From: Desulfocapsa sulfexigens DSM 10523
GTDB lineage: Bacteria; Desulfobacterota; Desulfobulbia; Desulfobulbales; Desulfocapsaceae
Reading direction: 5' to 3'
Assembly: GCF_000341395.1 (NCBI RefSeq)
Contig: NC_020304.1
Location: 2,220,001-2,252,000 of the forward strand
Length of the DNA: 32,000 nucleotides
In this document: positions 1 to 31,728 of the stretch, in pieces
Layout of the letters: the number at the start of each line of letters is the position of its first letter
Numbering within the stretch: the first letter of the stretch is position 1
Translations under genes and position numbers: made by a program
Notes under the pieces: generated by a model
What the model was told of the DNA's origin: nothing
Seen by the model: only the letters and a program-made list of their open reading frames with translations
The model's database searches: none

Positions 1-155
1 CCATCCTCGTTGAAAAGGAGGTGAAGGATGTCAAAGTCGGCAAGCTCTGCCAAGGTATCCATCCAGTGACGAATAACGGGAAAGGTTTTATACAGCTCTT
101 TTCCCATTTGTGGATAATGCGTTCCCTGACCGGAAAAAACAAGGCTAAGGGGCAA
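1..155 (-). other. Start of a malonyl/acyl transferase domain, truncated by the window edge
   Basis: PLSLVFSGQGTHYPQMGKELYKTFPVIRHWMD matches the GQGxQ start of PKS/FabD acyltransferases. The GHSxG serine lies outside the window. Confidence 0.7.
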
Positions 156-5359: not shown

Positions 5360-5411
5360 ACTTGTTGAAAACAATCATCGTCCATCTTTTTTTCTGCGGT
5401 ATGGTTAAAGT

Positions 5412-8798: not shown

Positions 8799-8828
8799 AT
8801 TCAGTCACTGACCGAGGAGTAAACAACT

Positions 8829-12853: not shown

Positions 12854-12925
12854 ATCGTAGGGCTATGGTTCTTCCTGTGAAGGTGGCTTTGACTAATAAT
12901 AAACGATTTTCCTGTAGATACCACC

Positions 12926-14053
12926 ATGAAACGTATTCTTTTTATTTCATCTAATATCCATACTCCATGGGGAGGAAGTGAACTTCTCTGGTACAAGACC
13001 GCAGTTTTTCTTGCATCACAGGAACCAGATGTTGAGGTTGTTGTGGTTGCAAGGAAATGGCCTCATATTCCACCCCATATCCAGGAAATTGCAGACGCCG
13101 GTGGCCGTATTTGTGATTTGCCTCTTCCTCCAACGACATCCATGGAATATTTGAAGGGGAAATTCCGACCATCGATTGAGATGCAAAAGAAAATGCTGTT
13201 ACAAAAGATTTCACCGGATCTTCTCTTGCACTCCATGGGAAAGAGTTTTGAGGGGGGGGACTGGATGCAGAGCGCCCATGAACTGTCCGTTCCCTATGTC
13301 AACCTTGTTCATCTTGCTTCTGATCTACAGTGGCCTGATGATGGTGAAGTGGATCTGTATCGAAAGGGGTATGACCAAGCTCGTGTGAATTTTTTTGTTT
13401 CGGAAGGAAACAGAGGGATTGTTTGCAAGCAGCTAGGGATGAATATTGTAAATTCTGCCATCGTCAGAAATCCGATTTCCGTAGCAAGAGAGATCCTCTC
13501 CTATCCAGAAACGAAACAGGGATACAATCTGGCGTTACCGGCGACGCTGGTCCCAATCCATAAGGGGCATGATATCTTGTTTGAGGTTCTTGCGCAGTCA
13601 AAATGGAAGCAGCGTCCACTTCATCTGAATCTCTATGGAACTGGGAATTATAGCAAGTCATTACAGTACTATAGTCAGTATCTGGGCTTGAAGAATATCC
13701 ACTTCAGGGGCTATTCAAAAAATATTGCAGAAGTATGGGCGAAAAATCATCTCCTGGTGATGAGTTCGAGGATGGAAGGCTTACCGTTAACACTTATAGA
13801 GGCAATGTCCTGTGGTCGATTGGCTGTTGTGACAGGGGTGGCAGGGAAGGAGTGTGTTCAGGATGGTGAAACTGGCTTTGTTGCAAAGGCTGCTCATCCC
13901 GAGTTTATAGATGAAGCTCTGGAGAGGGCCTGGCAGAAGAGGGCGCAGTGGCAGGAAATGGGAAGCCTTGCTGCCGAGCGAGTGCGAGAGCTTATACCCT
14001 TTGATCCCGTCGAGGCATTTGCTCATACCTTGTTGCAACTTGTGCAGGACTGA
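12926..14053 (+). CDS. Glycosyltransferase family 4 (GT-B, retaining type)
   Basis: SSRMEGLPLTLIEAMSCGRLAVVTGVAGKECVQDGETGFV (E-x7-E region). Confidence 0.85.
   Translation: MKRILFISSNIHTPWGGSELLWYKTAVFLASQEPDVEVVVVARKWPHIPPHIQEIADAGGRICDLPLPPTTSMEYLKGKFRPSIEMQKKMLLQKISPDLLLHSMGKSFEGGDWMQSAHELSVPYVNLVHLASDLQWPDDGEVDLYRKGYDQARVNFFVSEGNRGIVCKQLGMNIVNSAIVRNPISVAREILSYPETKQGYNLALPATLVPIHKGHDILFEVLAQSKWKQRPLHLNLYGTGNYSKSLQYYSQYLGLKNIHFRGYSKNIAEVWAKNHLLVMSSRMEGLPLTLIEAMSCGRLAVVTGVAGKECVQDGETGFVAKAAHPEFIDEALERAWQKRAQWQEMGSLAAERVRELIPFDPVEAFAHTLLQLVQD
13252..13259 (+). repeat. G8 homopolymer inside the GT4 coding sequence
   Basis: Read directly: gaG GGG GGG Gac encoding E-G-G-D. It is the longest G/C run I found in the window; the others are 6 or shorter. 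Confidence 0.95.
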
Positions 14054-14099
14054 CTTTAGTCCTCCTTTTTCTTATGGTTTATTTGGCAACAGTGGACTG

Positions 14100-15695
14100 T
14101 TATTTTCTCTTATCCTGTTCAGCCAGTAGACAGTGAATATCGTGTCGAATTGTTTTGCTCATCTGTAGATACGAATCACCGCTGATGCAATGAACAATAT
14201 ATTTTTTTAGACGGCTTGGGTTCTGTTTTTGCATGCCTTTTAATTGCTTCCAAAATTGTACCCTGTGGGGCGCTATGACACCATGTAACCATGCATGATG
14301 AAAAAATGTGACAAGCTCACAGAGCTGTCTTTTCAGAGGAGGGCTTGTTGTCTTTGCAGGATTGTCTTCATGAGGGGTACCGTTCTTTGCAGCTATGGCT
14401 TTACGAGTTGGACGTATACCAAGACAGAATTTGTAGGTCCTCTCCAAAAAACGGGAAGGGTTGTAGAGGTATTCCCACATTTCAATAAATTCCTCCATTA
14501 TCTCCTCTAATGGTCTGCTTGGGATAAAGTTGGGTAGATTAAAATATGTTTCACTTGTATTTAATGCGATGAGTTTGTCGAATAAACGATCTTCTTTTTG
14601 CAATCGCTCCTCGAGTCTAGTACCTGGGGGAGCGCTGAGAATGTTGGGCATAATGATCGGGATGCTGGTTTGATCAACAAAATCACAGATCCGTTTCCCC
14701 GCTCCTTTTTTTTCGTTGTCAAATCCAATGATAAAGCTACCAATGATTGAAAGTCCGTTTCGTTTAATATTTTCGATGGATTCCACAAGTGGATTGATGA
14801 CATTTTGATGCTTTTCATTTGCCGTCAGTATATCCTCGTCTGGAGATTCAATTCCGATAAATATATCCCCAAAGTTTGCAGCGGTCAGCAGGTCTATCAT
14901 CTCCATGTCTTGTCCCAGGTTTACAGATGCCTGGGTTGTGAAACCAAAGGGCTGGTGGCGTTTTCTGTTCCATTTGATCAGTTCCTGGCAGATGGCCTTT
15001 GCATTCTTTTTGTTGGCGATAAAATTATCATCTGCAATTGTAATATGACCCCTGGCTCCAAGTTGATACAGGTATTCCAGTTCTGCGATAACTTGATCAG
15101 GACTTTTAAAACGGGGCTGCTTGCCGTATAAACCTGCAATGTCACAGAATTCACAACTGAATGGACACCCTCTGGTTGTCTGTATTAAGAAATGGTAGTA
15201 GTCGTCAAGATTGATGAGGTCATAACGAGGCAGGGGGGTGTTGTTTAAGTCAGGCTTTTCGTTGTTGCGAATGACTTGACCACTTTTTCTGGATTGGATG
15301 GCATCAACCAGGGAAGTGATGTTGTTTTCTGCTTCTCCACAGACCACGATATCACAACCAATTGTAATGAGTTCATCAGCCATGAGTGTCGGGTAGGGGC
15401 CTCCCGCGACGGTGACTTTTGCTCTTTTTTTTGCTTCTTCAATTAGGGGCTGGAAACTTTTTCTCTGCACTATCATGCCTGATATCATGATTATGTCAGC
15501 CCATTGCCACTCTTTTTCAGTTACTTCTCTGACATTTAAATCAACAAACTTGATATCCCATTCTTTTGGTAAAAGTGCGGCAACTGTGATTGGTCCGAGA
15601 GGAGCATATAAGGCCTTTGCTGTAGAAAATCGTATTGCTTGAGGAAAACTCCAGAAAGAAAATGGTAATTCTGGGTATATGAGTAAGATATTCAT
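14100..15695 (-). CDS. B12-binding-domain radical SAM enzyme (class B type) with a long C-terminal extension
   Basis: N-terminal Rossmann-like MNILLIYPE...ADIIMISGM...VTVAGGPYPT. Radical SAM cluster motif TTRGCPFSCEFCDI (CxxxCxxC). The ~150-aa helical C-terminal tail looks like the type often labelled DUF4070; this is from memory and unverified. Confidence 0.9.
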   Translation of the reverse strand: MNILLIYPELPFSFWSFPQAIRFSTAKALYAPLGPITVAALLPKEWDIKFVDLNVREVTEKEWQWADIIMISGMIVQRKSFQPLIEEAKKRAKVTVAGGPYPTLMADELITIGCDIVVCGEAENNITSLVDAIQSRKSGQVIRNNEKPDLNNTPLPRYDLINLDDYYHFLIQTTRGCPFSCEFCDIAGLYGKQPRFKSPDQVIAELEYLYQLGARGHITIADDNFIANKKNAKAICQELIKWNRKRHQPFGFTTQASVNLGQDMEMIDLLTAANFGDIFIGIESPDEDILTANEKHQNVINPLVESIENIKRNGLSIIGSFIIGFDNEKKGAGKRICDFVDQTSIPIIMPNILSAPPGTRLEERLQKEDRLFDKLIALNTSETYFNLPNFIPSRPLEEIMEEFIEMWEYLYNPSRFLERTYKFCLGIRPTRKAIAAKNGTPHEDNPAKTTSPPLKRQLCELVTFFHHAWLHGVIAPHRVQFWKQLKGMQKQNPSRLKKYIVHCISGDSYLQMSKTIRHDIHCLLAEQDKRK

Positions 15696-15916
15696 GGGGA
15701 AACTCCTGATTGAATCACTAGAGATTGGCTTATTAGCTCCCTGGGCAAGTTGAGTCTTTACAGATTACAAACATACTATATACTATATATTATGACATTT
15801 TTTTGGATCAATGAATTTTTCAAAGGTGTAGTAAGCTGATATAAATAATATTCAATACTGTGTGAACATACACCTGACTGTGAAGTAGTTGTTATATGTA
15901 ATGTATCATACATTCT
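15696..15916. promoter_or_regulatory. AT-rich divergent intergenic region between the radical SAM gene (minus) and the GT4 genes (plus)
   Basis: 221 bp between divergent starts. It contains a tandem ACTATAT ACTATAT followed by ATTATGAC (several -10-like hexamers) near 15775-15795. Confidence 0.35.
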
Positions 15917-17164
15917 TTGGAGTTTCTGTTTTTGTCTGATAAAAAGTTGCCAAATACCGCTTATATTCTACTCTGGTTTCCTAAGCCATCTGAAACATTT
16001 GTTTTCAGTGAGGTGGAAAATTTATTAAAACTTGGGTTGCCAGTGTCTGTCTACACTTTGTATGGGAGATTAGAAAAAGACCTGTCTTCTGATATGCAAT
16101 CGTATCAAGGAAAAATCCTCAGGTTGGGTGTATGGTGGGGAATTGCTCTGCCGATATTCATTTTTTATTGGTTTTTGAGATCTCCCGTTAAGACGACCAT
16201 GCTTATTGTTCGGATTGTATTAAGAAGATGGAAAGGAGTAGAGAAAACAGCAGAGAATGTATGGGCATGTTTCTGTGCCTTCTATCTGGCATATCGTTTT
16301 GAAAAAGATCAGATCAAACATATTCATGCTCCCTGGGCCTGTGGCTGTGCGACGGCTGCCTGGCTTGCTTCCCGATTAACGGGTATTCCCTTCAGTTTTG
16401 CCATGCATGCCTGGGATATCTATCCCCCTGACAGCCTGATCCAAGAAAAAACAAGGGATGCTTTGTTTGTTAGGAGTGTGACGCAATATAATATTGAATA
16501 TTTACGAAAACTTACTGCTTGCTCTGAAGATAAGTTTCACCTTATTTACATTGGTGTTCCCATGAGTCAGGTAAAAGCAAGACATGTTTCCATGGAACCG
16601 CCATATCAATTGTTAGCCGTTGGACGTTTGGTTGGTAAAAAAGGCTATGAATTTCTTTTACGTGCCTGCGGAGTATTGAAGGCCAATGCGATAGATTTCC
16701 ACTTGAATATTGTCGGTGATGGTTTGTATCTTAACCAATTGCAACGACTCTGTGCATCGCTCGAACTAGAATCTGTTGTGACGTTTCATGGGTTTCAACC
16801 CTATGAAAAAATGCCAACTTTTTTTCAGGAAGCGGACATTTTCATAATGCCGTGTGTTGTCCATTCTTCCGGGGACCGTGATGGTATCCCAACTGTTTTG
16901 ATGGAGGCTCTTCTTCATTATGTTCCGGTTATCACTACTTCGGTTTCCGGGATCCCTGAACTCATTGAAGACGGTGTCTCAGGTGTGCTTGTGCCGGAAA
17001 AAGATCCCAATGCAATAGTCGACGCCGTAACCCTGCTTATAACAGAAAAACAAAAAGCGTGGGATATGGCGGACAGGGGAAACCGGAAAGTGTTGGAATT
17101 GTTCAATGCAGAGAAAAACCATAAAAAAATACTTGATCTTTACAATTCCTACCTGTTGAACTAA
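15917..17164 (+). CDS. Glycosyltransferase family 4, WcaL-like
   Basis: The N-terminal FPKPSETFVFSEVENLLKLG matches the F-P-x-x-SETF-x-x-x-E signature of WcaL-type GT4 enzymes. C-terminal GDRDGIPTVLMEALLHYVPVITTSVSGIPELIEDGVSGVLV. The start is a TTG, so it is uncertain. Confidence 0.8.
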   Translation: MEFLFLSDKKLPNTAYILLWFPKPSETFVFSEVENLLKLGLPVSVYTLYGRLEKDLSSDMQSYQGKILRLGVWWGIALPIFIFYWFLRSPVKTTMLIVRIVLRRWKGVEKTAENVWACFCAFYLAYRFEKDQIKHIHAPWACGCATAAWLASRLTGIPFSFAMHAWDIYPPDSLIQEKTRDALFVRSVTQYNIEYLRKLTACSEDKFHLIYIGVPMSQVKARHVSMEPPYQLLAVGRLVGKKGYEFLLRACGVLKANAIDFHLNIVGDGLYLNQLQRLCASLELESVVTFHGFQPYEKMPTFFQEADIFIMPCVVHSSGDRDGIPTVLMEALLHYVPVITTSVSGIPELIEDGVSGVLVPEKDPNAIVDAVTLLITEKQKAWDMADRGNRKVLELFNAEKNHKKILDLYNSYLLN

Positions 17165-17193
17165 CAGATTGTTAAGGATGTTTGTCTTTTCAC

Positions 17194-18279
17194 ATGAATG
17201 ATATTTCCCCTCCATATAAACTCGTTATTGTTCTTCAGGATCTGGAATTCGGTGGTACCCAGCGGTATGCTATAAACCTTTTGCAATATATAGACAGAAG
17301 TTTGTTTGACCCGGAACTCTGGGTGCTTCGGGGTGGTATGGATATGGCCCCACTTGCCAAACAGACAGGAGTTCAGATACGATGGTTCTCAAAAGGCAGC
17401 AGAGTTACCCCATTAGCTCTGTATCATTTTTTTCGATGTCTTGCTCGTAACAGACCTACTATTCTCTATCCTTTGACAGTTGTTCCTAATATCTGGGCAA
17501 GAATTTTTGGGACCCTTTTGAGGGTGCCGGTACTTATTTCGAGTTATCGGAATTTATATGCAAACCAGTATGAACGTCTGCTTTGGCCTTTGTCCACTCA
17601 TATTATCTGCAACGCAGAGGCAATACGAGAAAAACTGGTAAAAAAGCACAGAGTGAAAAGGAGTAGGATTTCAGTCGTTTCCAATGGCGTGGATACAGAG
17701 TTCTTTGTTCCCGACTCTGCAAAACAATCAATTCCTTTGACAATTCTGTACGCCGGACGGCTGGTTTATCAGAAAGATCCTCTGACTTTGCTTAAGGCCT
17801 TTGTGCGTATTAAAGAGGCAAGACCCGAGGTAAGGTTGCTGGTAGTGGGTAATGGAGATTTGCGTTGTGAACTTCTGCAATTTATCAAACATCATTCCCT
17901 TGAAGAACATGTTTCTTTGATCGGGGGGACAGTGGATATCAAAAAGTATATGCAGAAAGCCAGGATCTTTCTTCTTTCCTCTCTTTATGAAGGATCGCCA
18001 AATATACTTATTGAAGCTATGGCTTGTGGTTTGCCGGTAGTTGCCACTCGAACAAGTGGAATCCCAGAGCTCATTGAGCACGGGAGGAATGGTTATCTGG
18101 TTTTACCTGGTGATTCAAAAACTATGGCTAAACAGGCAATTCATCTCCTTTCTGATAGTCATTTATGGGAAACTATGTCAACACAGGCACGAATCAAGGT
18201 GCTTACAAACCATAAACTGAAAGAATGTGTTCGACTGACGGAAAAGATCTTGCTGGCTCATCTCCCTGAACAGAAATGA
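17194..18279 (+). CDS. Glycosyltransferase family 4
   Basis: LEFGGTQRY N-lobe and SSLYEGSPNILIEAMACGLPVVATRTSGIPELIEHGRNGYLV. I prefer the ATG at 17194 over the TTG at 17182. Confidence 0.85.
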   Translation: MNDISPPYKLVIVLQDLEFGGTQRYAINLLQYIDRSLFDPELWVLRGGMDMAPLAKQTGVQIRWFSKGSRVTPLALYHFFRCLARNRPTILYPLTVVPNIWARIFGTLLRVPVLISSYRNLYANQYERLLWPLSTHIICNAEAIREKLVKKHRVKRSRISVVSNGVDTEFFVPDSAKQSIPLTILYAGRLVYQKDPLTLLKAFVRIKEARPEVRLLVVGNGDLRCELLQFIKHHSLEEHVSLIGGTVDIKKYMQKARIFLLSSLYEGSPNILIEAMACGLPVVATRTSGIPELIEHGRNGYLVLPGDSKTMAKQAIHLLSDSHLWETMSTQARIKVLTNHKLKECVRLTEKILLAHLPEQK

Positions 18280-18306: not shown

Positions 18307-19770
18307 TTATGGCTCATTTGTTTGGGCGTCAGACCTTTGTTCACGCCAGACCAATAGAAAGTAAACGGATAATGCCAATGTACCTGAGACATAATAATTA
18401 ACTGGTAGGAAAAGTATAAAAAGAACTATCGTTCCCAGCCAGTAAAGAGATGTGTTTTTATAGTCTGCCACATCAAAAAAGCGGATTCTTTTCTGTAAAG
18501 TGGCGATAAGGATGATTGACAATATGATCCTGCTGCCCAGAAGAGAGAGGACACCTCCCAGCGGACCTGTATCGGCTATAAGGAGAGGGCCAAGTACGAT
18601 ACTGCATAAAACTGGTATCGTAAGGAATATAAGCAATTGTTTTTCTAGCCTCATTGCTAACAGGCTATAAATAATAAAATTATTTATAAAAGAGAAAAAT
18701 GCGGCAGCACCAAAAAATGGAACGAGAGCTTCAGAAACAGAGTAGTTTTCCCCATATATGATGAAGGCAATCTTACCTCCAAAAACAGCGAGGAGAACGG
18801 CGAGACCACTCCCTAACAGTACGATTTTTTTGAAGAAAGACCGGATTACTTCTCGAAAATGCTCTTTGTTTTTGTCGGAAAATGCGCTGACGAGTTGCGG
18901 AAAGAGCACCGCACCGATGACAAGATGAGCTATGGCTCCACAGATTGATCCCGTTATGTCGGAGGCAACTTTATAAATCGCAACATCGTTGAAGGTGTGA
19001 TATTGCCGAATCCAAAAAATCTGGATTTCATTATAGAATGTTCCAAGGAAACTCACGCCGGAGATAAGTGCCAATGAAATCAGTTCGTTTTTCTTGAATG
19101 GGAATTCAGTATTTTTTTTCAGGGAAAAGTAACATAGCCTTCGGGCACCAAATATTGCTGTGCTTAATTTTAGACCACCACTTAGTAGGAAGAGTAGGGA
19201 AAAGAAAAGAATATCCAAATGGAGAAAAAGGCATACTGCTCCATAGGAAAATGCAATAATATTGGGGACTGTCCGACAGATGCCTTCATTAATGTTTTTT
19301 CCTTCTGCTCGGAAAAGATTGAAAAATGTATCGGCCATCCCTTCAAAACATTGGCTAAGTAAGAGGATAGAGATAATGGTAATCTGCTGAAGAGGCCACT
19401 GCTTGATAAAGAGTGCGAAAGTGAGAAAAATAAATATGGATCCTCCAGAAATGAGGACCTTCATTAGGGCCATTTGTCTCAGTAAGGGGCCCGTGCCACT
19501 CTTGGATGCGGATAGTTCCCGAAGGGTGTATTGATCCAGGCCCATGCTTTGCAGTGAACGGAGTAGCGTAACAATACTTAACCCAAGAACGATTAGGCCG
19601 TAACCGGACTGGTCGATACGGGCAAGCCAGATAAAGAGAAGGGAAAGTAAGGCATCCTGTACAGACTTACTACCGATAAGTGCCAAGGAACGAAAGATGA
19701 TGGTGCGGAAGGATAAAACCTGCTGAGGCGATTTATTGTCAGCAGGTGACATGCTATCTCTTTGTCTCAT
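18307..19770 (-). CDS. MOP-superfamily polysaccharide/oligosaccharide flippase (Wzx-like)
   Basis: About 12-14 TM segments. The N-terminal pattern ...ALIGSKSVQDALLSLLFIWLAR...GYGLIVLGLSIVTLL is typical of polysaccharide biosynthesis (Wzx/RfbX) proteins. The start is ambiguous: TTG 19785, ATG 19770 or ATG 19752. Confidence 0.75.
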   Translation of the reverse strand: MRQRDSMSPADNKSPQQVLSFRTIIFRSLALIGSKSVQDALLSLLFIWLARIDQSGYGLIVLGLSIVTLLRSLQSMGLDQYTLRELSASKSGTGPLLRQMALMKVLISGGSIFIFLTFALFIKQWPLQQITIISILLLSQCFEGMADTFFNLFRAEGKNINEGICRTVPNIIAFSYGAVCLFLHLDILFFSLLFLLSGGLKLSTAIFGARRLCYFSLKKNTEFPFKKNELISLALISGVSFLGTFYNEIQIFWIRQYHTFNDVAIYKVASDITGSICGAIAHLVIGAVLFPQLVSAFSDKNKEHFREVIRSFFKKIVLLGSGLAVLLAVFGGKIAFIIYGENYSVSEALVPFFGAAAFFSFINNFIIYSLLAMRLEKQLLIFLTIPVLCSIVLGPLLIADTGPLGGVLSLLGSRIILSIILIATLQKRIRFFDVADYKNTSLYWLGTIVLFILFLPVNYYVSGTLALSVYFLLVWREQRSDAQTNEP

Positions 19771-19880
19771 TGCAGATGATTCCAATTGCTAACGATTTTT
19801 GTCAGTAGCTAAATCGTACACGAAATTTTTTGACGAATGGGTCTTTGAGTAGCAAAGGAACACATCACTCTGATATAGGG

Positions 19881-20816
19881 TTATCTCGTCAGCTGTTTAT
19901 ATTCTATTCGACCTTTAAATCCTGGACGTAATTCGAATTTATTGTTTTTTATAGTCATCTCTATCTGGTAGTAAGACGGAAGGTCTGGATCAGGGATGGC
20001 TGGGGCCCAGCTAATGGACGTAATTGTTGCAGGAAATTGTCTTTTTGGGAGAGAATCTGGAAAAAAAGTTACTTTGTCGCCAATATTGAGGTGAATAACA
20101 TCTCTTTCATAGACGAGGGAGTGTATCAGCATGGTATCCATGGTTCCAATTTGGGCGATGATTGTTCCCTCGGGGAGTAAACTGTTTTCTCTGAGAAGTG
20201 GATGGAGTGAAAGGACCATTCCAGAGATAGGAGATTTTAATTTTACAATCTCAGGGATTTGGCCAGATATGATGGTGTCGTCTCCAAGCACTTTTCTCAC
20301 ACTCTTGAGTGCCTTGTCTGCGAAATTATCGGCGTAGGTGAATCGTTTCGTGAGAATTGATACGTAAGCACGGGTCAAGCGCAGCTCTGTTTGTAATGCC
20401 TCCAATGTATATTGGGGGGAGAGTTTCTCGGCTGTTAAACGTTTGAGTTCTTTTTCCGTTCGTTCAAGTCGGATGATGTTTTGTTTTTCCAGCTCGAGAT
20501 GGCGTCTTATGTCATCAAGTTCGTTGAAGAGAAGTTCTCTTCCAAGTTGGATCGCCCGGCTTTCTTCCAAAGTATATTGAGCAATTGTTTCACCTTCTTC
20601 AACCGACTGCCCGGGGATGATCCTGATATCTGTGAAGGTCCCGGTAAAAGGCATGGGGACTGCTCTGCTCAGTGAACAGGAAACTTTTCCCTCAAAAACG
20701 AGGATGGAATTATTCGGGATTTCTTTTGCCTGCTTTTCGTCAACTTCGTTGGCAAAAGAAGAGCTAAAGAACAAACAAGTGACAAGTAAGCAAGTGAAAC
20801 GGATTAGATTATTCAT
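19881..20816 (-). CDS. HlyD/MacA/DevB-type periplasmic adaptor (membrane fusion protein)
   Basis: N-terminal signal-like segment, a lipoyl-like GQSVEEGETIAQY, a coiled-coil stretch (ELEKQNIIRLERTEKELKRL) and beta-barrel-like GDKVTFFPDSLP. It overlaps the upstream gene by 8 nt. Confidence 0.8.
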   Translation of the reverse strand: MNNLIRFTCLLVTCLFFSSSFANEVDEKQAKEIPNNSILVFEGKVSCSLSRAVPMPFTGTFTDIRIIPGQSVEEGETIAQYTLEESRAIQLGRELLFNELDDIRRHLELEKQNIIRLERTEKELKRLTAEKLSPQYTLEALQTELRLTRAYVSILTKRFTYADNFADKALKSVRKVLGDDTIISGQIPEIVKLKSPISGMVLSLHPLLRENSLLPEGTIIAQIGTMDTMLIHSLVYERDVIHLNIGDKVTFFPDSLPKRQFPATITSISWAPAIPDPDLPSYYQIEMTIKNNKFELRPGFKGRIEYKQLTR

Positions 20817-22134
20817 AGGGAATATCTGCTAAAGAAATGTTGAAAGTATCTTTTAGAAGCTGTCCAGAGAGGTGCCGAAGTTTAAGGGTTGCCTTATTTA
20901 AAGAGAATTGCTTTTGGATCGTATCTAATGATTTCCTGTGTAATGCAATTTGGTGATCGATAAGTTCAGGAAGTTCAATTGTCCCTCTTGCATAGTCAAT
21001 TTCCCTTTTTTTCATCTGTATATTATTGAGTTTCTCAATTGATTGAGACAAAGCATATGCGGATTTAGCAGATGAATATTGCTGTGTGGCCTTCAGCCAT
21101 TCCAGGGAATCGTTGTTTTCGATTTCTTTCTTTTCAAAATCCATTTGTCGAAGAACCATTTTCTGCCTGGTAATATCCCGGGATCGTTTATTCCCATCCC
21201 AGAGGGTAAGGCTCATGCCGGCATATAAAAAGTATTCCTGGTCATCATTGACACTTACATTCAAAACATCGGGGCTACGAAAACCTATTGAGAAATCAGG
21301 TAGAAATTTGGAATAGGCAAGTGTTATATTTTTTTGTTGTAGAATCCCTTTTATTTGCATGATTTGTTGTTCAATTGAATCCTTTGGTTGGGGGGAACTT
21401 TGTGGGGTGGAGAGGGGGGAATTGCCAAGAATTTGTTTGAGTACCTGCGGGGCGTCAAGATCAAATACTGTAGGATCCGGTAAATTCATTGAAATACACA
21501 GGCCATTGAGTAGTGCATCACGTTTTATCGCATTACCTTCGTATTCCGCAGCAATAAAGGCATTTCTTTGTTCCTCAAATTCTATTTCAAGATCTGTAGT
21601 CAGGCCACTCTCGTACCGTTGTTTAGCATAATGCAGCCTTTTTTGAGAAAGGTCCACTATCTGTTTGTAATGGCTTTCATTTTGGTCGGTCACAAAAAGC
21701 TGTAAAAACGTGTCCGCTAATTTATACAAGGCTTGAGCAGTCGCCTGTACATGTTTGAGCATGACGATATGGGTAATTAGTTTTCTTGCCTGCAGAGTGT
21801 AATAGGGTTCCCAAGGCCTGTAATTTGCGGCGTTAAATGAAATTGTGGCTTCATCTTCTGAAAAATAATAATAACTGGAGAGCGATAGAGTGGGAACATA
21901 GGACCAGCGACTGTCATCCTCGTCAAGATGTCTGATATCTATTTCTATTTTACTTCTTTGTAGTTGTGGTATCCTTTTCACGCCGGTTACTGCACATGTC
22001 TGGAAATCAGTTATTTTTTCAGGGATGGTAGTATCTGGTCCATCCGTTTCTGCTGCTTGAACAGTTGGTGTGTGAAGGAGCAGGTAGGGATAAATTATGA
22101 GTAACAGTATGTATGATAGATGTTGTCGGGTCAT
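20809..22134 (-). CDS. TolC-family outer membrane efflux channel
   Basis: Signal peptide ...LLLHTPTVQA. Two repeated helix-rich halves with Y/L-rich OEP-like segments. The size (441 aa) and operon position with the MFP and ABC genes also fit. Confidence 0.75.
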   Translation of the reverse strand: MTRQHLSYILLLIIYPYLLLHTPTVQAAETDGPDTTIPEKITDFQTCAVTGVKRIPQLQRSKIEIDIRHLDEDDSRWSYVPTLSLSSYYYFSEDEATISFNAANYRPWEPYYTLQARKLITHIVMLKHVQATAQALYKLADTFLQLFVTDQNESHYKQIVDLSQKRLHYAKQRYESGLTTDLEIEFEEQRNAFIAAEYEGNAIKRDALLNGLCISMNLPDPTVFDLDAPQVLKQILGNSPLSTPQSSPQPKDSIEQQIMQIKGILQQKNITLAYSKFLPDFSIGFRSPDVLNVSVNDDQEYFLYAGMSLTLWDGNKRSRDITRQKMVLRQMDFEKKEIENNDSLEWLKATQQYSSAKSAYALSQSIEKLNNIQMKKREIDYARGTIELPELIDHQIALHRKSLDTIQKQFSLNKATLKLRHLSGQLLKDTFNISLADIPYE

Positions 22135-22186
22135 CTGACTTTCCCAAAAAAAAGTAAATATTTAAACATGGTGAGCATGCTTCCAG

Positions 22187-22885
22187 TTACTTTTCTGAAA
22201 GCAGTTCTCCATTTTCTATGTGTAAGACCTGGTCGCACTTTTCAGCAACGTTTTGATCGTGAGTAACTAAAATCATGGCTGTATCGGTAGATGATGCAAT
22301 GGATCTGAAACATTCCATAATTTGCTGTGAATTATCAGAATCGAGTTGGCCAGTTGGTTCATCGGCGAGAATAACTGCAGGTTTGTTGACTATTGCTCTG
22401 GCAATGGCAACTCGTTGTCTTTCTCCACCGGAAAGTTTGTTGGATGAATGATGCATGCGATGAGTCAGGTTGACCTGCTCAAGAACCTGATGAATTCTTT
22501 CTGGTCGGAGTGATGGCTTGCTTTTAGCGTAAATAAGAGGGTATTCAATGTTTTCATATACAGTTGAGTGTTCAAACATATCGGCGCCCTGGAGCACAAA
22601 CCCAATATGCTCTCTGCGGAATTGTGCCTGATGCCCCCGACTAAGCTCAAGGATGTTTGTATCGTTAACGAGATATTTTCCGGTGGTGGGTGAAAGGAAC
22701 AGTCCGAGAATAAAAAGAAGTGTTGACTTCCCTGAACCGGATGGCCCCATTATGGCTACCATCTCATTTCTTAACACAGTCATGTCTATTTTGCGAAGGA
22801 CAGAGACGTCCTTTCCTTGAGTCTGGTAAGATTTGGTTATTCCCTGAAGGTCGATAAGATTACTTGTTTTTTGTTGTTTACTCAT
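22187..22885 (-). CDS. ABC transporter ATPase, MacB/LolD/DevA type
   Basis: Walker [10 protein letters not shown], signature [14 protein letters not shown], Walker [12 protein letters not shown] and an H-loop VTHD. Confidence 0.9.
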
Positions 22886-24071
22886 ATCTAAGAGCAGTAA
22901 CCACTTCCATTCTACTGGCTTTTATGGCTGGCGCAAGACCGGCTACTATGCCAAGAATAAGAGAAAATGAAAAGCCAATGCCAGTACTCAGCCAGAAGAG
23001 ATTTTTTGGAGGAGAATTATGGAGGATTGAAGCTGTGAATGTTACCCCTGTCCATCCTAACATAAATCCGATAAAAGTTGCACCAATGCTCAGCATAAGA
23101 GACTCTGCAAGAAACTGAAAGAGAATATCGTGGTCTTCAGCACCGATTGCCTTTTTCAAGCCGATTTCCCGGGTTCTTGAGCGGACGGCCATCATCATGA
23201 TATTCCATATCCCTATTCCACCAAGCACAAAAGTGGCAATCAGGGCAAGCTGGACAAAAATTTTGACTCCAAAAGAAATGGCTTTAATTCTGGCCAAAAG
23301 TTCTTCAGGGAGAAAAATTTCTATTTCATCGTTCGGTTGATATTTTTTTACTACGAGAGGTATTTTATTTATCGTATCCTCTATATCATCCCAGGAGTAG
23401 CAACGGATGTAGAGTTTATTTACTGGACTTATTGAATTGATCCTGTCTTGGGCTGTAGTTATCGGCAAAAAGATAGTGCGGGCTTTATCAGGCATGCTCA
23501 TGGCGTCAAGAACGCCAATAACTTTAAACGGGGTGTTGTTAATAGTGATAAATTGGTCTATGGGATCCAGGTGGTTGAAAATTTCATGGGCAGTTCTCTG
23601 CCCCAAAATGCATACAGGCCTACGTTGCTGCAGATCTTTTTCAGAAAATAAGATACCAGCTTGAGTGGATGAACCATGTACTTTCCAGAATGATTCATCA
23701 ACACCGAGCATTTGAAAATAACCAATGGTATCCAGGTGTGAGATTTTGACAAAGTCATTCCTGGTGACAATACTGCTGACTTGATCGACCCCTGGAATGG
23801 CTTTTATCCCGTCGATGCTGTTCTGCTTGAATTCTCTTTTGTCTGTGCGAGGATCGAGAGTGGGGATATGTTTGAAGAGAATTCTGATACGGGTGGCGTT
23901 CCCTATAATTTCAAGGTCGTGGCTGATGTTTTCCTCTATTGACCTTCCCATGGTAATCATAATAATAAATCCAGCAGTTCCAAGGATGATTGTAACGATC
24001 ACGCCAATATTTTTGCGGTATTGTCGCAACACTTGCCGACTACTTATTCGGATGAGGTCGGTGGTTCTCAT
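22878..24071 (-). CDS. ABC transporter permease, MacB/FtsX/DevC type with a periplasmic domain
   Basis: One N-terminal TM, a ~230-aa extracytoplasmic domain, then a 3-TM FtsX-like C-terminus (REIGLKKAIGAEDHDILFQFLAESL...[17 protein letters not shown]). It overlaps the ATPase start by 8 nt. Confidence 0.85.
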   Translation of the reverse strand: MRTTDLIRISSRQVLRQYRKNIGVIVTIILGTAGFIIMITMGRSIEENISHDLEIIGNATRIRILFKHIPTLDPRTDKREFKQNSIDGIKAIPGVDQVSSIVTRNDFVKISHLDTIGYFQMLGVDESFWKVHGSSTQAGILFSEKDLQQRRPVCILGQRTAHEIFNHLDPIDQFITINNTPFKVIGVLDAMSMPDKARTIFLPITTAQDRINSISPVNKLYIRCYSWDDIEDTINKIPLVVKKYQPNDEIEIFLPEELLARIKAISFGVKIFVQLALIATFVLGGIGIWNIMMMAVRSRTREIGLKKAIGAEDHDILFQFLAESLMLSIGATFIGFMLGWTGVTFTASILHNSPPKNLFWLSTGIGFSFSLILGIVAGLAPAIKASRMEVVTALRYE

Positions 24072-24836
24072 TGTTTGCAGAACAACATATCGTTATTTGT
24101 CTTCAATTTGAGTGCCTTAGCGCTGTTCCTGAAATACTGTATTAACTAAAAAGAGCCTCTCCAAAAGCTACTTCTGGAGAAGAGTGCTGATTCGATTTAA
24201 TTCTGCTGTCATAAAAAATGTGCTGTGAATTGAAATAGTAGTACAAAATGGGTTGAATAAACAGTAGGTTATTCTATTATTTATGTTGTCAAACAGCAAG
24301 AGAAAAAATGTTTAGATACGGACGAAAACAGGAGACATGGTAATGGTGGGGAAAAAAGAGTCTTTTTACCAGCTCTGCCAGGAATGAATGTGAGAACACT
24401 GTTTGAAATCTTAGCAAGAGATGGAAATAGAATTGGTATGCAACATTTTTACAGAACCTTTTGAGTCATGATGATAATTTTGTCTCCCAAAGTTATTACT
24501 TATGTACGTTTCCGAATCATTTTCATTGGTTAATGTGCATACAGCGATCACATGTTCCCAGGAGTACGTGATGGTGAGATCAATAACGGATTAGCTGAAA
24601 CCATATAAAATAATTGACTTTTGTGTCAAAATCATTGTAGTGGTTGTTATGGATTGCCAGTGTGTGGATCTGTGTGAGCTACTTGAAGATACAAAGGGGA
24701 GACTTTCCTTTTTTCTATGCTGGAAATTTGGTTGCCGAGGGGCGATAGTCGGTAACAAATTGATCTCTCTCAAAAAAAATATACATTTAGAATGCCAAGC
24801 AATCACCTATCGCTGTATCCGTAATCAGGGCAGACA
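24072..24836. promoter_or_regulatory. 765-bp noncoding divergent control region between the exporter operon (minus) and the GT2 operon (plus)
   Basis: This is the longest noncoding stretch in the window. It holds only short overlapping track ORFs without coding features. Confidence 0.4.
24721..24736 (+). promoter_or_regulatory. Candidate sigma-54 (-24/-12) promoter-like element
   Basis: TGGAAATTTGGTTGCC has TGG-N8-TTGC, the spacing of the TGGCAC-N5-TTGC consensus, about 100 nt upstream of the ATG at 24837. This is a core-only match and no enhancer-binding protein gene is in the window. Confidence 0.2.
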
Positions 24837-25850
24837 ATGACACGTGAACACCTCGCTGAATCTATACCTAAACTCTCAGTTGTCATACCGGCCTACAATG
24901 AAGATGCTAATATAGCTCAGCTTTATGTAGAGCTTAAGCAGGTCCTGACTGAGATGGACATGTCCTGGGAAATCATCTTTGCCGACGATGGGAGCACAGA
25001 TAGCAGTTGGGATACAATAACATCTCTCCATGAAAAGGATAAGCGGGTAAAAGGTGTTCGGTTATCCCGTAATTTTGGACATCAGTATGCACTCTTTGCC
25101 GGCTTGTCACAAGCGCGTGGGAAAGCTGTTGTTTCAATGGATGCCGACTTACAACATCCTCCTCAGTTGATCCCTGAGCTTGTCAAGAAATGGAGAGAAG
25201 GACATCAGATTGTTCACACAGTCCGCATAGATCCCGACGGTATCTCTCTTTTTAAAAAAACAACTTCCAGGCTGTATTACAGAATTTTTTCATTTTGCAG
25301 CGGTGTTAGAATCGAGCCGGGAATGGCTGATTTTCGGTTATTAGACCGTGAGGTTTTAGACCGTATACTGCAATTTCGGGAAGCAGGCCTTTTTTTACGT
25401 GGCATTGTTCAATGGGTGGGGTATTCAAGTTCCACCGTTACATTTCAATCAGCGACTCGGTTCAGTGGATCCAGTCACTATTCTATAAAAAAAATGCTGA
25501 GTTTTGGGTGGGATGGTATCAGTTCTTTTTCCATTATTCCTTTACGGTTTGCAACGCTAATTGGTTTTCTGACGAGTGGCCTCGCATTTTCTGGAATTGT
25601 TTATGCATTTTATTCCAAGTTCATCTCTGGCACGGCCATTCCTGGATGGGCTTCTTCAATGGCCATTCTTTCTTTTCTATTGGGCGTTCTCTTTATTCTT
25701 ATCGGTTTAATAGGAGAATATATCGGGCGCATACTTATTGAGGTCATGCAGAGGCCTCGGTATCTTATCTGGGAGAAAATCGGAACAGACTCTCATTCAA
25801 CGATTGGCTTGAAGTGTACTGAGCAGTCTGAATTTACGGTTGAACAATGA
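24837..25850 (+). CDS. GT2 polyprenyl-phosphate sugar transferase (ArnC/GtrB/DPM1-like)
   Basis: LSVVIPAYNEDANI, IIFADDGSTDSS and LSRNFGHQYALFAGLSQARGKAVVSMDADLQHPPQLIPELV, plus two C-terminal TM helices. Confidence 0.85.
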   Translation: MTREHLAESIPKLSVVIPAYNEDANIAQLYVELKQVLTEMDMSWEIIFADDGSTDSSWDTITSLHEKDKRVKGVRLSRNFGHQYALFAGLSQARGKAVVSMDADLQHPPQLIPELVKKWREGHQIVHTVRIDPDGISLFKKTTSRLYYRIFSFCSGVRIEPGMADFRLLDREVLDRILQFREAGLFLRGIVQWVGYSSSTVTFQSATRFSGSSHYSIKKMLSFGWDGISSFSIIPLRFATLIGFLTSGLAFSGIVYAFYSKFISGTAIPGWASSMAILSFLLGVLFILIGLIGEYIGRILIEVMQRPRYLIWEKIGTDSHSTIGLKCTEQSEFTVEQ

Positions 25851-25863
25851 TAGCATTCTTGCC

Positions 25864-26730
25864 ATGGGCCGCCTGATTATTCATGCTGACGATTTTGGAT
25901 TAACTGAGAAAGTAAACGCAGGAATCCTAAAAGCCCATCTGGAAGGGATTCTTACGTCGACATCAATAATGGCTACCGCTTCAGCGTTTTCAGAGGCTAT
26001 TAAGATATGCCAGAGAGTGCCGACACTGGATACTGGGGTTCATTTGACCCTTGTGGGGGAGAAGTCGATCCTCAGTCAGGATGTGATAAGAAGTTTAGTC
26101 AACAAAGAGGGCAGATTTCATGCTCATGCTATGCAATTTGTTCAAAGATATTATTGCGGGCGGATATCGTTGGATGAGGTGTACCGCGAGCTTGACGCGC
26201 AAATTCTAAAAGTTTTGAATACCGGGATCGAGATCAGTCACCTGGACAGTCACCAACATTTGCATATACTACCCCACATCCTAAGTATCACGGTCGAACT
26301 GGCAAAAAAATACAAGATTACAGCAATACGATTTCCCTTTGAAAAATTCAGTTTTACAATGCTCAAGGAGCTACCACTGTTGCCAAGGATCATACAGTTG
26401 TTGGTTCTTAATACTTTCTGCTATTTAGGACGTAATATGGAAGTTTTGCGAACGGACCGTTTTTTTGGGTTTCTGCATGGTGGCAACTTGACTAAGGATA
26501 CCTTGTCAAAAATTATTGAAACATTCCCTCAAAATGGAACTTGGGAGTTGATGTGCCATCCTGGAATGGAAGATCCAGAATCATCTTATGGCATATGGGG
26601 ATACCACTGGCAGGAAGAGCTGGATGCATTGCTCGATTCAGATATTACAAATATTTTGAATCGAAAGGGAATCTCTCTTATATCTTACCGTGACTTGGCT
26701 CAGGGGCAGCCAACACCGCAGATTGGATAG
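25864..26730 (+). CDS. YdjC/ChbG-family carbohydrate deacetylase
   Basis: LIIHADDFGLTEKVNAGILKAHLEGILTSTSIMA and HLDSHQHLH metal-binding motifs. I prefer the ATG at 25864. The TTG at 25840, overlapping the upstream gene, is an alternative. Confidence 0.85.
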   Translation: MGRLIIHADDFGLTEKVNAGILKAHLEGILTSTSIMATASAFSEAIKICQRVPTLDTGVHLTLVGEKSILSQDVIRSLVNKEGRFHAHAMQFVQRYYCGRISLDEVYRELDAQILKVLNTGIEISHLDSHQHLHILPHILSITVELAKKYKITAIRFPFEKFSFTMLKELPLLPRIIQLLVLNTFCYLGRNMEVLRTDRFFGFLHGGNLTKDTLSKIIETFPQNGTWELMCHPGMEDPESSYGIWGYHWQEELDALLDSDITNILNRKGISLISYRDLAQGQPTPQIG

Positions 26731-26801
26731 TTTGTTGGTACAATAGTACTCAAGCCAACCCAAAACAAGAGTTTGAAAAATGTAAATCTTATAAGGACGA
26801 T

Positions 26802-28583
26802 ATGAACGCGAATGGAGAACTAAAGAAAATATTTTTCATATCTATGGCTACTGTCCGGCTTGAGCTAATCGTTACCACAGCGGTCTTCGCTGTCTTGTTG
26901 TACTTTATTTTTGATTTTATCTCTCAAGAGCGTTTTGTTTATTTTTGGGATTTTGCAAATTATTGGTCTAGGTATAGGGATTTCAACGAGTTGTTTTTTG
27001 AATCGCCTTTGAGGGCCTTGGGAAAAGTAATACCTTCGGTAAGGCATGATGAATATAATTTGTTTCCAGTCGCTTTGCTGTTACCCGCTGGGATTACCCT
27101 CGGTAATTCTCGAATAAGTTTTGTTGTCGCAAATGCTCTTCTGTTTAATTTCCCCACCATTGTTTTGTTTGCCTACTTTTTTAAATCAAGAATTAGTAAG
27201 GAACGTGAATTCAGTACTACCGGCTTGGAATATATTGTAGCCCTATTCTGTATGGCTTTGGCACCACAGCTATGGGTACCTGTTCTTTGTGGTTACTTGG
27301 GCACAGGAGGATTGTTTCTGGCTATTGCAGTGTTAATACTTTATAGCAGGAAATCGTTCAGCGATCAAAACTATTGGTCTATCCTCTACATGGCTTTTTT
27401 GCTTAGCTTGATGGTGGTTTTCAGGCGGTGGTATGCATACTGGGTTGTCGGATTTCTTGTCAGTATTACAATTGTTAATATACTTTTTCTTGTAAATACG
27501 TATCGTATAAATTTTAAAGAGTATATGCCAACCATGGTTAAACTTTTTCTGTTTGGCGGCGCTTCTGCTGGTTTTTTTATATGCTTAGCGACTCCCCAGG
27601 CTATAAGAATGCTCACAACTGATTATGGTGATATCTATTCAGGGTATAAATATGCCACATCATTTACGGATACTCTACAAGACCTGAATGCCCATTTTGG
27701 CCTTCTCACCCTTGCAAGCGCAGCTTTAGGGTTTCTTTTTTCCTTAAAGAATATCAAACGTAGTCAAACGGCGATTATTCTTTTCCTCCAGTTCTGGCTC
27801 AGTTTTATCCTGTTTACCAGAACCCAGGATATGGGATACCATCACTACTATATTTTACTGCCATCACTTCTCTATTTTTCATGCTACTTCTGGATGGTCT
27901 TGTTGACGATTGTCAGTGGGAAATTAGCAAGCTCACTGGCCTTCGTCATATTGTTTTGTCTTCTCCTATTGAATTTTACCATTGTTTTTGTTCCCCCTGT
28001 TGCCGATGTTCTGCCAAAGTTTGATTCTGCGTTTTCTCAGTTGAGACACTATCCGATGAAACGTCATGATATTGGAGAAATACATAACATATTAGAATAC
28101 TTCGATGAGCAGGAATTAAGTGAAGTCGACAAGGTGTATGTTCTTGCAAGTGGTCTCATTCTCAACGACGATATTCTGAGAAAGGGATGTGAAGCTGAAA
28201 ATGGGAAGTATGCAATCTGTGATTGTTTTGCAACGACTGCCCACGTGGATAAAAGAGACGGGTTGCCTGTGGAGCTTTTTCAATCAAAGTATATTGTTAC
28301 AACTGAGCCAGCTCAATTTCACCTGGACCCAAAAGACCAACAGGTAATAGGCATAGTAAGGGATATGGTCGTTCATCAGGAGGGGTTCGGAAAAAATTAT
28401 CGAAAACTGAAGATCGAATTCACTCTTGATGAAAATGTTGATGTTTTAATATATCAAAAGATTGGTGAGAAATTTTCTGAAGATGATTTGCAAGATATTT
28501 CGGATAGATTTGTGAGATTATATCCTGCTCACAGTGGAAAATTTTTATTTCCTTCAGATATATTTGACCAACTTACTGATTAA
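26802..28583 (+). CDS. 593-aa polytopic membrane protein, probably a GT-C fold (ArnT/PMT-like) glycosyltransferase with a C-terminal periplasmic domain
   Basis: About 11-13 TM segments and an aromatic/acidic first-loop motif FVYFWDFANYW. The ~190-aa soluble C-terminus and the position downstream of the ArnC-like and YdjC-like genes also fit. AAGGA RBS present. Confidence 0.55.
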   Translation: MNANGELKKIFFISMATVRLELIVTTAVFAVLLYFIFDFISQERFVYFWDFANYWSRYRDFNELFFESPLRALGKVIPSVRHDEYNLFPVALLLPAGITLGNSRISFVVANALLFNFPTIVLFAYFFKSRISKEREFSTTGLEYIVALFCMALAPQLWVPVLCGYLGTGGLFLAIAVLILYSRKSFSDQNYWSILYMAFLLSLMVVFRRWYAYWVVGFLVSITIVNILFLVNTYRINFKEYMPTMVKLFLFGGASAGFFICLATPQAIRMLTTDYGDIYSGYKYATSFTDTLQDLNAHFGLLTLASAALGFLFSLKNIKRSQTAIILFLQFWLSFILFTRTQDMGYHHYYILLPSLLYFSCYFWMVLLTIVSGKLASSLAFVILFCLLLLNFTIVFVPPVADVLPKFDSAFSQLRHYPMKRHDIGEIHNILEYFDEQELSEVDKVYVLASGLILNDDILRKGCEAENGKYAICDCFATTAHVDKRDGLPVELFQSKYIVTTEPAQFHLDPKDQQVIGIVRDMVVHQEGFGKNYRKLKIEFTLDENVDVLIYQKIGEKFSEDDLQDISDRFVRLYPAHSGKFLFPSDIFDQLTD

Positions 28584-28700
28584 AGGATGTTGGTATTCAA
28601 AATCAAGTTGATTGGTAATGGTGTTTTGAGGAGCCACTAAAAAAATGAAATGGCCGTCTCTACTTGAGCATGTCATTGGTTCGAGTGAGAAAAAAAGTAT

Positions 28701-29744: not shown

Positions 29745-29831
29745 GTTGGGACTTTCTGAATTTATGTGTGAAAATATGGCTTTATTGATATGTCAATCAG
29801 TACGGTTCCCCTATGAATCGTTCACCATGTC

Positions 29832-31556: not shown

Positions 31557-31728
31557 AAAGAGTTATTGTTTCTGCATACACCCACTGCCACTTTTGGCAG
31601 TCTGGGCGTTCCCCAGTGAGTTGTTTTATGATTCTTCGGATCAGAATATGAGATGAAAAACATTGGCAATATTCACGATTAAAAAAATCACCTTCCAGGG
31701 TGAAAGTGGATAATATAAAGGATTTTTG

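Follow-up and report, generated by a model that had tools for sequence, protein, structure and literature searches.

A split-subunit MacB-type tripartite pump with an adjacent flippase-like gene in a glycan locus of Desulfocapsa sulfexigens

We analyzed 32,000 nucleotides of the genome of Desulfocapsa sulfexigens DSM 10523 (contig NC_020304.1, positions 2,220,001 to 2,252,000 of the forward strand; herein referred to as the window), in which five co-directional genes, read along the minus strand from 24071 to 18307, encode a permease, an ABC ATPase, a TolC-family outer-membrane factor (OMF), a HlyD-type periplasmic adaptor and a flippase-like protein (table 1). An earlier note, made from the DNA sequence by itself, had described these genes as a DevBCA- or MacAB-TolC-like exporter in one operon with a Wzx-like flippase, and had proposed that the pump exports a glycolipid. 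The identities and order of the five genes are borne out by our analysis, by Pfam for the first four and by profile and fold evidence for the fifth. What is new is a dedicated MacB-type exporter with its own exit duct and a recurrent flippase partner from the MOP superfamily, MacB-type pumps themselves being well known, and the interest of the locus lies mainly in the link of this pump family to lipid biosynthesis.

Table 1. Features of the window (positions are those of the 32,000-nt stretch; GT, glycosyltransferase; PKS, polyketide synthase; TM, transmembrane).
Feature	Position	Strand	Description and basis
Permease	22878..24071	-	397 aa; Pfam MacB_PCD + FtsX
ABC ATPase	22187..22885	-	232 aa; Pfam ABC_tran
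TolC-family OMF	20809..22134	-	441 aa; Pfam OEP
HlyD/MFP-type periplasmic adaptor	19881..20816	-	311 aa; Pfam HlyD_3, HlyD_D23
Divergent MOP-superfamily (PST/Wzx-type) flippase-like protein (predicted)	18307..19785	-	492 aa from TTG; 481 aa from ATG 19752
Adaptor-flippase spacer	19786..19880	-	95 nt to TTG; 128 nt to annotated ATG
Intergenic region 5' of permease, divergent	24072..24836		765 nt
Type I PKS, N-terminal 1287 aa	3-3863	-	Runs off left window edge; Pfam
Glycan-assembly genes between PKS and pump	4307..18279		GT (Glyco_trans_1_3), 1128-aa GT4+GT2 fusion, Wzm/Wzt (Wzt_C), 612-aa 10-TM protein, GT4, B12-radical SAM/DUF4070, two more GT4 genes; Pfam, NCBIfam, TM estimates
Divergent block	24837..31556	+	ArnC/PgfS-like GT2, YdjC/HpnK-like deacetylase, 593-aa 9-TM protein, Acyltransferase_3, 574-aa polytopic protein

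Gene junctions and the nature of the five proteins

Two junctions within the pump genes are translationally coupled. The permease stop and ATPase start overlap by 8 nt at 22878-22885 (ATGAGTAA), and the OMF stop and adaptor start overlap by 8 nt at 20809-20816 (ATGAATAA); both overlaps, already reported in the earlier note, were read directly from the sequence. Of 47 family permeases drawn from several orders, 45 retain the first (ATGAnTAA/TGA), which is therefore not a product of chance, and the second is largely confined to the Desulfocapsa clade (5 of 52 family OMF genes). A gap of 52 nt separates the ATPase and OMF genes, and the adaptor and flippase-like genes are not translationally coupled. 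A consensus scan found no terminator-like site in the spacer between them. Ahead of the pump genes, a terminator-like hairpin (12-bp stem followed by a T-run; 24156-24182, minus strand) lies ~85 nt upstream of the permease ATG in the presumed leader. The divergent intergenic region that contains it is unusually long and is not conserved in two related loci (L001 and L003), where the upstream gene lies close; Rfam returned no match for this 765-nt leader at E<=1, and a scan of the whole window was also empty.

The permease matches the Pfam families MacB_PCD (98 bits) and FtsX (65.9 bits) and has four TM helices, with TM1 and TM2 separated by a large periplasmic domain; it lacks a fused nucleotide-binding domain, the ATPase being a separate polypeptide. 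Against NCBIfam models it scores 133.9 bits for MacB and 34.2 bits for LolCE, with no match to the DevC model at E<=0.01, and a sequence search of the PDB returned MacB-type proteins only (MacB 5nik, 121 bits), the identity to solved MacB structures being ~21-23%. Its AlphaFold2 model (pLDDT 85) is closest to MacB in a Foldseek search (E 1e-23 to 1e-19, TMq 0.70-0.73), with LolE ranking lower (E 1e-15, TMq ~0.6). The ATPase (ABC_tran, 114.7 bits) retains the Walker A, signature, Walker B and H-loop (VTHD) motifs in its translation, and its NCBIfam matches rank as LolD (224 bits), DarD (204), MacB (204.2) and DevA (169), all of them under the respective cut-offs. Neither the permease nor the ATPase, at these scores, reaches the 966-bit cut-off of the equivalog MacB model (NF007826), which describes the fused protein.

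The OMF and the adaptor are both highly divergent by sequence. The OMF is recognized by the Pfam model OEP in two stretches (83.5 bits, cut-off 22) and begins with an N-terminal signal peptide that has no lipobox cysteine, and its top sequence match in the PDB is VceC at an E-value of 0.75. The adaptor, likewise remote from solved structures, matches HlyD_3 (41.8 bits, cut-off 22.2) and HlyD_D23 (37.9 bits) in Pfam and RND_mfp (36 bits), DevB (25.6 bits) and MacA (21 bits) in NCBIfam; it carries an N-terminal hydrophobic anchor or signal, and its homologues contain Beta-barrel_YknX.

The locus accordingly holds the full set of type VII components, namely a 4-TM permease with a MacB periplasmic core and FtsX domain, an intact ATPase, a HlyD adaptor and a TolC-family OMF, and we assign the pump, on sequence and predicted fold, as a split-subunit MacB-type (type VII) ABC tripartite system whose permease is closest to MacB. 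Two other assignments were considered and rejected. The earlier note had likened the pump to DevBCA as well as to MacAB-TolC; the DevC model gives no match, and the DevA (TIGR02982) and DevB (TIGR02971) scores are 169 against 295.8 bits and 25.6 against 129 bits, leaving MacB as the nearest characterized relative. The pump resembles DevBCA at the level of superfamily and functional analogy only. A LolCDE role was set aside on a score of 34.2 against 362 bits for TIGR02212, on the lack of LolC or LolE among the PDB sequence matches and on the lower rank of LolE by fold; that the pump comes with an adaptor and an OMF also argues against a Lol-type role.

The probable true start of the fifth gene is the ATG at 19752, which matches the public annotation of the product as a 'lipopolysaccharide biosynthesis protein', and the 481-aa form is 100% identical to that annotated protein. 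The protein has no Pfam match even at E<=10 and no NCBIfam match, and its family profile finds no sequence match in the PDB. Its relatives are more readily placed: 3 of 19 close homologues match Pfam MOP models, PF01943 or PF13440 is found in some homologues of 35-58% identity, and an exhaustive search with the family profile retrieved 13,619 representatives at E<=1e-3, among which seven of ten sampled are Polysacc_synt members (PF01943/PF13440). The AlphaFold model (pLDDT 81, pTM 0.81) has 14 helices and aligns in Foldseek to MurJ, WzxE and MATE structures with a probability of 1.00 and TM-scores of 0.6-0.77 (such as MurJ 6nc8, TMq 0.72, and WzxE 9g9n, TMt 0.75). Profile relationships and modeled fold indicate that the fifth gene encodes a divergent member of the MOP superfamily on its Wzx/PST side, for which flipping itself is predicted.

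The pump clade is conservedly embedded in glycan and lipid loci

To place the pump among its relatives, we called open reading frames (ORFs) in every fetched locus and mapped the clusters that BLASTP formed from them; the caller is crude, and in GC-rich loci antisense ORFs took the place of some genes, which makes the counts given here approximate. A neighbor-joining tree of the permeases, drawn without bootstrap, separates 61 distinct family loci (mostly Desulfobacterota) from 25 generic MacB outgroup loci and splits the family into two clades. The closest clade (59-78% identity to the window permease) comprises metagenome-assembled genomes of Desulfocapsaceae and Desulfobulbaceae, and its sister clade (~32-46%) spans Desulfovibrionaceae, Desulfobaccales and Syntrophobacterales together with one genome each from Kiritimatiellae and Acidobacteriota; generic MacB-like proteins from Firmicutes and bacteria of the candidate phyla radiation show at most 33% identity, over partial-length matches only. 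Of the 61 family loci, 52 contain the OMF cluster and 46 the adaptor cluster, and none of the 25 outgroup loci contains either.

Glycosyltransferase clusters or a serine palmitoyltransferase (Spt)-like alpha-oxoamine synthase (AOS) occur in 48 of the 61 family loci versus 1 of the 25 outgroup loci. The pump clade is hence conservedly embedded in glycan and lipid loci, the opposite of the independence from such genes in relatives that the earlier note had named among the observations that would count against its proposal. Its view of a dedicated exporter of a glycan or lipid locus, rather than a drug efflux pump, draws support from the separate clade, from the private OMF and adaptor and from this shared context; the glycolipid substrate itself is a matter that we infer.

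Within the closest clade, the flippase-like gene is a recurrent companion of the pump. The order permease-ATPase-OMF-adaptor-flippase recurs in L001/L002, L003 and L004/L005, with flippase identity down to 45% and, in L003, a 133-aa ORF inserted, and L006 (flippase identity 40%) keeps the order from ATPase to flippase with the permease displaced. Counting the window, the flippase gene follows the adaptor gene in five distinct closest-clade loci, and Glycos_transf_1 genes (glycosyltransferase group 1) flank loci L001-L006. A hidden Markov model search found the flippase family in 7 of the 61 loci, including two distant ones: L036, where it lies near the pump, and the Kiritimatiellae locus L008, which reads Spt-like gene, pump, 62-aa ORF, B12-radical SAM gene, PMT_2 gene and flippase, with a second B12-radical SAM gene and a GT21 gene just downstream on the opposite strand. 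The association of flippase and pump is recurrent, not obligatory. Comparison by hhalign of the unassigned polytopic proteins of the window with those of the sister clade (clusters 6, 15, 16, 20, 26 and 43) gave no relationship, with all probabilities below 5%, and so did not reveal a hidden flippase in the Spt-linked loci.

In 33 of the 61 loci, an Spt-like AOS gene lies directly upstream of the permease gene. The synthase scores 432 bits against the NCBIfam serine palmitoyltransferase model (cut-off 640), ahead of BioF (361) and Kbl (338), and 350 bits against the Sphingobacterium Spt structure versus 268 for BioF/KBL; one sister locus has in its place an AMP-ligase-acyl carrier protein (ACP)-AOS fusion beside an epimerase-family reductase. 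The wider sister-clade order, widely conserved in Desulfobacterota (L007-L064; e.g., L056 1544-17151 and L061 2192-17143), starts with GT4, radical SAM/SPASM and Zn-dehydrogenase genes and a 326-aa protein, and continues with a Dpm1-like GT2, a Wzy_C-like protein, a 452-aa protein weakly similar to PMT_2, the Spt-like synthase, the pump and proteins of 389 and 605 aa; polytopic proteins of the cluster weakly resemble PMT_2 or Dpy19, and 11 loci of the sister clade have Wzy_C/O-antigen-ligase-like genes. Production of sphingolipids has been proposed for Desulfobacterota (PMC11334938), and the route of bacterial sphingolipids to the outer membrane has been called 'a mystery' outside a model built on LptFG paralogues in Caulobacter (10.64898/2026.04.12.717747); our literature searches on Desulfovibrio sphingolipids and on D. 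sulfexigens envelope genes found nothing specific. An Spt-like gene placed against the permease gene in 33 genomes makes this cluster, judged by its gene content, a candidate export system that may carry sphingolipid-type lipids to the outer membrane, which is a lead for the family and not a finding for the window.

The PKS fragment at the left edge of the window comprises ~340 aa with no Pfam match, an NMO/enoyl-reductase-like region, a ketosynthase (KS) and the start of an acyltransferase (AT) domain (ketoacyl-synt 165 bits, Ketoacyl-synt_C 99.9, NMO 84.9), and its start lies 14.4 kb from position 18307, in agreement with the ~14 kb stated earlier. Among Desulfobacterota, homologues sharing 44-50% identity are frequent, with the architecture NMO-KS-AT-ACP and a ketoreductase-dehydratase pair that is either fused on longer members or encoded by a separate adjacent gene alongside a phosphopantetheinyl transferase. 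A PKS-AOS fusion, also considered, found no support, as PKS homologues (<=73% identity) carry no aminotransferase domain. In two loci (L091 2626-17577 and L092 3573-18474), a homologous PKS operon (47-50% identity) stands divergently to a MacB pump of another kind, the fused type, made up of an adaptor, an ABC_tran+MacB_PCD protein, an FtsX protein and an OEP protein, with no flippase or glycosyltransferase genes there. This arrangement is the one indirect indication of a link between such a PKS and a MacB-type pump. L091 adds a MarR regulator, and both loci come from one study and probably represent related genomes. A search for tandem or dispersed repeats in 1-4400 of the window gave nothing meaningful.

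Between the PKS and the pump, the glycan-assembly gene set is syntenic in L001-L003. It includes, at 5412-11028 on the plus strand, the 1128-aa GT4+GT2 fusion (Pfam does not recognize its 470-aa N-terminal region) and next to it Wzm and a Wzt with a C-terminal Wzt_C domain, and this ABC-2-type Wzm/Wzt pair is a second glycan export system of the locus. The gene for a B12-binding radical SAM protein with DUF4070 (14100-15695, minus strand) recurs beside the pump in both clades, in 12 family loci, and its NCBIfam matches are weak (TIGR04013, PhpK-type methyltransferase, BchE, HpnJ). On the other side of the pump, the GT2 of the divergent block scores 240.8 bits for PgfS and the YdjC deacetylase 204.9 bits for HpnK against a cut-off of 232.6; the trio of GT2, YdjC and 591/593-aa protein (24837-28583 in the window) recurs in L004/L005 and resembles an arrangement for Arn-type periplasmic aminosugar transfer, with no GtrA- or ArnE/F-type flippase detected. 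Three polytopic proteins of 612, 593 and 574 aa (11015-12853, minus strand; 26802-28583 and 29832-31556, plus strand), each predicted to have 9-10 TM helices, fall into no family of Pfam or NCBIfam, and in L003 a 590-aa homologue of the 574-aa protein overlaps the permease start. The Pfam-scanned window proteins showed no Wzy_C, Wzz or Poly_export domains; with no genes for outer-membrane polysaccharide export (OPX) or polysaccharide co-polymerase (PCP) proteins among these ORFs, the pump is the sole outer-membrane route encoded here. At the right edge, a further ABC ATPase gene begins (31726-32000, plus strand; Walker A GKNGAGKST) and is cut by the end of the window.

A proposed two-step export route and its alternatives

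MacB moves no substrates through the inner membrane; it expels periplasmic substrates through the adaptor and TolC by mechanotransmission, and for other MacB-type pumps a separate translocase performs the inner-membrane step (PMC5985334). As pumps of this type act on periplasmic material only, we propose that the adjacent MOP protein is the missing inner-membrane step, and export of glycolipids by DevBCA-TolC/HgdD provides a precedent for the substrate class (PMC5985334; PMC6161253). We hypothesize that the pump is a dedicated exporter for a glycolipid or glycoconjugate made by the locus, with the flippase supplying its passage across the inner membrane, a proposal that we hold to have about an even chance of being correct. 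Under this hypothesis, cytoplasmic glycosyltransferases would build a lipid-linked glycoconjugate, the Wzx/MOP protein would flip this intermediate over the inner membrane, the nearby polytopic proteins and the Acyltransferase_3 protein may decorate it in the periplasm, and the pump would extract the product and expel it, driven by ATP, through the adaptor and the TolC-like exit duct. The product would most likely be a glycolipid or another lipid-anchored glycoconjugate; the substrate class, the hand-over from flippase to pump and the co-transcription of the flippase gene are all inferred components of the proposal.

Several observations weigh against this hypothesis, beside the approximate nature of the gene counts. 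The flippase gene, lying 95-128 nt beyond the adaptor gene, could have a promoter of its own, and the consensus scan shows a weak promoter-like site in the spacer at 19805-19776 (9 of 12 matches). The flippase is missing from 54 of the 61 family loci, from which it follows that the pump does not generally need this flippase, and in L011, a member of the closest clade with 63% permease identity, a B12-radical SAM gene follows the adaptor gene in the place of the flippase. Other systems of the locus, namely the Wzm/Wzt exporter and the ArnC-like GT2 with the polytopic proteins, could employ the flippase with no part played by the pump. The Spt-like gene characteristic of the sister clade is absent from the 32-kb window, and for a link to the PKS the related loci fetched offer no comparison, as none has a PKS closer than 10 kb to its pump. 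The earlier description of pump and flippase as one operon accordingly holds for their adjacency and shared orientation; however, an operon that includes the flippase gene is unproven given the gap, the 7 of 61 loci and the arrangement in L011.

The strongest alternative is that flippase and pump are neighbors that do not hand over a substrate: the Wzx-like protein would flip sugars or oligosaccharides linked to polyprenyl, which would then enter periplasmic glycosylation, assembly of the O-antigen type or ligation by the polytopic enzymes of the locus, and the pump would export another nearby product, such as a non-glycosylated lipid derived from a PKS or aminolipid pathway, or a small molecule. 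The wide and translationally uncoupled junction and the many pump loci with no flippase speak for this alternative, as does the gene order of L008, in which the flippase directly follows a PMT_2 (GT-C) gene and not the adaptor. The ArnC/PgfS-like GT2, the YdjC deacetylase and the polytopic proteins, for which no GtrA- or ArnE/F-type flippase was detected, offer such a second use for the MOP protein, and the PKS operons of L091 and L092 stand beside the other MacB-type pump with neither flippase nor glycosyltransferase genes. Against this, flippase and pump of the closest clade stay adjacent and co-oriented even where identity has fallen to 40-45%, the association recurs in the distant L008 and L036, and a substrate made in the cytoplasm requires an inner-membrane translocase (PMC5985334), for which the block holds no other candidate. 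We consider this alternative rather unlikely, yet a serious contender.

A further possibility is that the pump stands in for the Wza/Wzc-type (OPX/PCP) machinery and threads a polysaccharide, flipped by the Wzx-like protein and polymerized in the periplasm, through the TolC-like duct. The window is rich in glycosyltransferases and has no OPX, PCP or Wzy domains, and the Wzy_C/O-antigen-ligase-like genes of the 11 sister-clade loci could be taken in the same sense; however, the window also has no recognizable polymerase, the literature searched contains no polysaccharide-exporting duct of the TolC family, and the context of Spt-like, PKS and GT21 genes favors lipid aglycones over free polymers. 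On balance, we regard polysaccharide secretion as improbable. A MacAB-TolC-like pump of the ordinary kind, for efflux or for resistance to antimicrobial peptides, lying in a glycan locus by chance, to which the MacB proteins as nearest characterized relatives and the public annotation 'ABC-type antimicrobial peptide transport system' might point, is the least probable of all and very unlikely, considering the distinct clade (with generic MacB-like proteins at <=33% identity over partial lengths), the private OMF and adaptor families and the synteny with glycan and lipid genes, which 48 of 61 loci from several orders show and 1 of 25 outgroup loci shows. Annotations as an 'antimicrobial peptide ABC transporter' therefore need not mean resistance genes.

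Returning to the proposed two-step export, we suggest an extension to the whole family (~60 species-level genomes, mainly Desulfobacterota with the one Kiritimatiellae and one Acidobacteriota genome). These pumps, not described as a family so far, may be an outer-membrane delivery route for envelope glycolipids other than lipopolysaccharide (LPS), with a MOP flippase supplying the inner-membrane flip. The substrates would be sphingolipid-like in most members, because the Spt-like gene abuts the permease gene, and possibly PKS-derived in the Desulfocapsa branch. We advance this broader statement tentatively, as possible but on the doubtful side.

Comparison with known systems

The closest structural parallel is MacAB-TolC of Escherichia coli, Acinetobacter baumannii and Aggregatibacter actinomycetemcomitans, which shares with the window pump the MacB_PCD and 4-TM FtsX fold, the HlyD-type adaptor and the TolC-family duct. 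The window pump differs in its unfused ATPase, in its permease-ATPase-OMF-adaptor order and in having the OMF gene among the pump genes, whereas tolC of E. coli is unlinked to its pump genes. Its OMF and adaptor are barely recognizable by sequence, and it sits in a glycan and lipid context, not as a stand-alone unit. The window pump is expected to act by the same mechanotransmission on periplasmic substrates (PMC5985334).

DevBCA-HgdD, which exports the heterocyst glycolipid of Anabaena, likewise joins a split MacB-type permease and ATPase to an MFP and a TolC homologue (PMC5985334; PMC6161253). Its substrate is a PKS-derived glycolipid, and the window has a PKS at 14.4 kb and many glycosyltransferase genes. 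The name devBCA implies the order adaptor-permease-ATPase, unlike that of the window, and hgdD is unlinked to devBCA. No MOP flippase is described as a component of this system (PMC5985334; PMC6161253), and for DevBCA-type glycolipid exporters the literature searched describes no first step. If the pairing of flippase and pump holds, the window would offer a concrete two-step route for surface glycolipids in anaerobic sulfur bacteria, in which a lipid is flipped and then expelled, driven by ATP, via a private TolC-like duct. The earlier note knew of no system that couples a MOP flippase to a MacB-type pump, and our full-text literature search, which was not exhaustive, also found none.

With the Wzx/PST flippases and MurJ, the fifth protein shares a predicted 14-helix MOP fold, a profile link to Polysacc_synt and a glycosyltransferase-rich locus; however, none of the Pfam MOP models recognizes it, the window lacks Wzy, Wzz or Wza partners for it, and its conserved neighbor is a tripartite pump. 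PvdRT-OpmQ (pyoverdine) and AatPABCD (dispersin) follow the same two-step logic, in which an inner-membrane translocase is followed by a MacB-type pump with a private OMF (PMC5985334). The former exports a siderophore and the latter a lipoprotein-like protein, and the likeness to the window pump considered here is one of logic. An ABC exporter or Sec, not a MOP flippase, carries out their first step.

For the sister clade, the relevant comparison is with the LptF/G/C paralogues of Caulobacter, a dedicated ABC system within a lipid-synthesis locus that has been proposed as the outward carrier of a non-LPS lipid, a sphingolipid (10.64898/2026.04.12.717747). These paralogues have a different ABC fold (LptFG, type VI) and form a bridge, not a duct, and the window is without an Spt-like gene. 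If the sphingolipid-type role of the sister clade is true, its pumps would represent a second, duct-based solution, beside the Lpt-type bridge, by which such lipids reach the cell surface.

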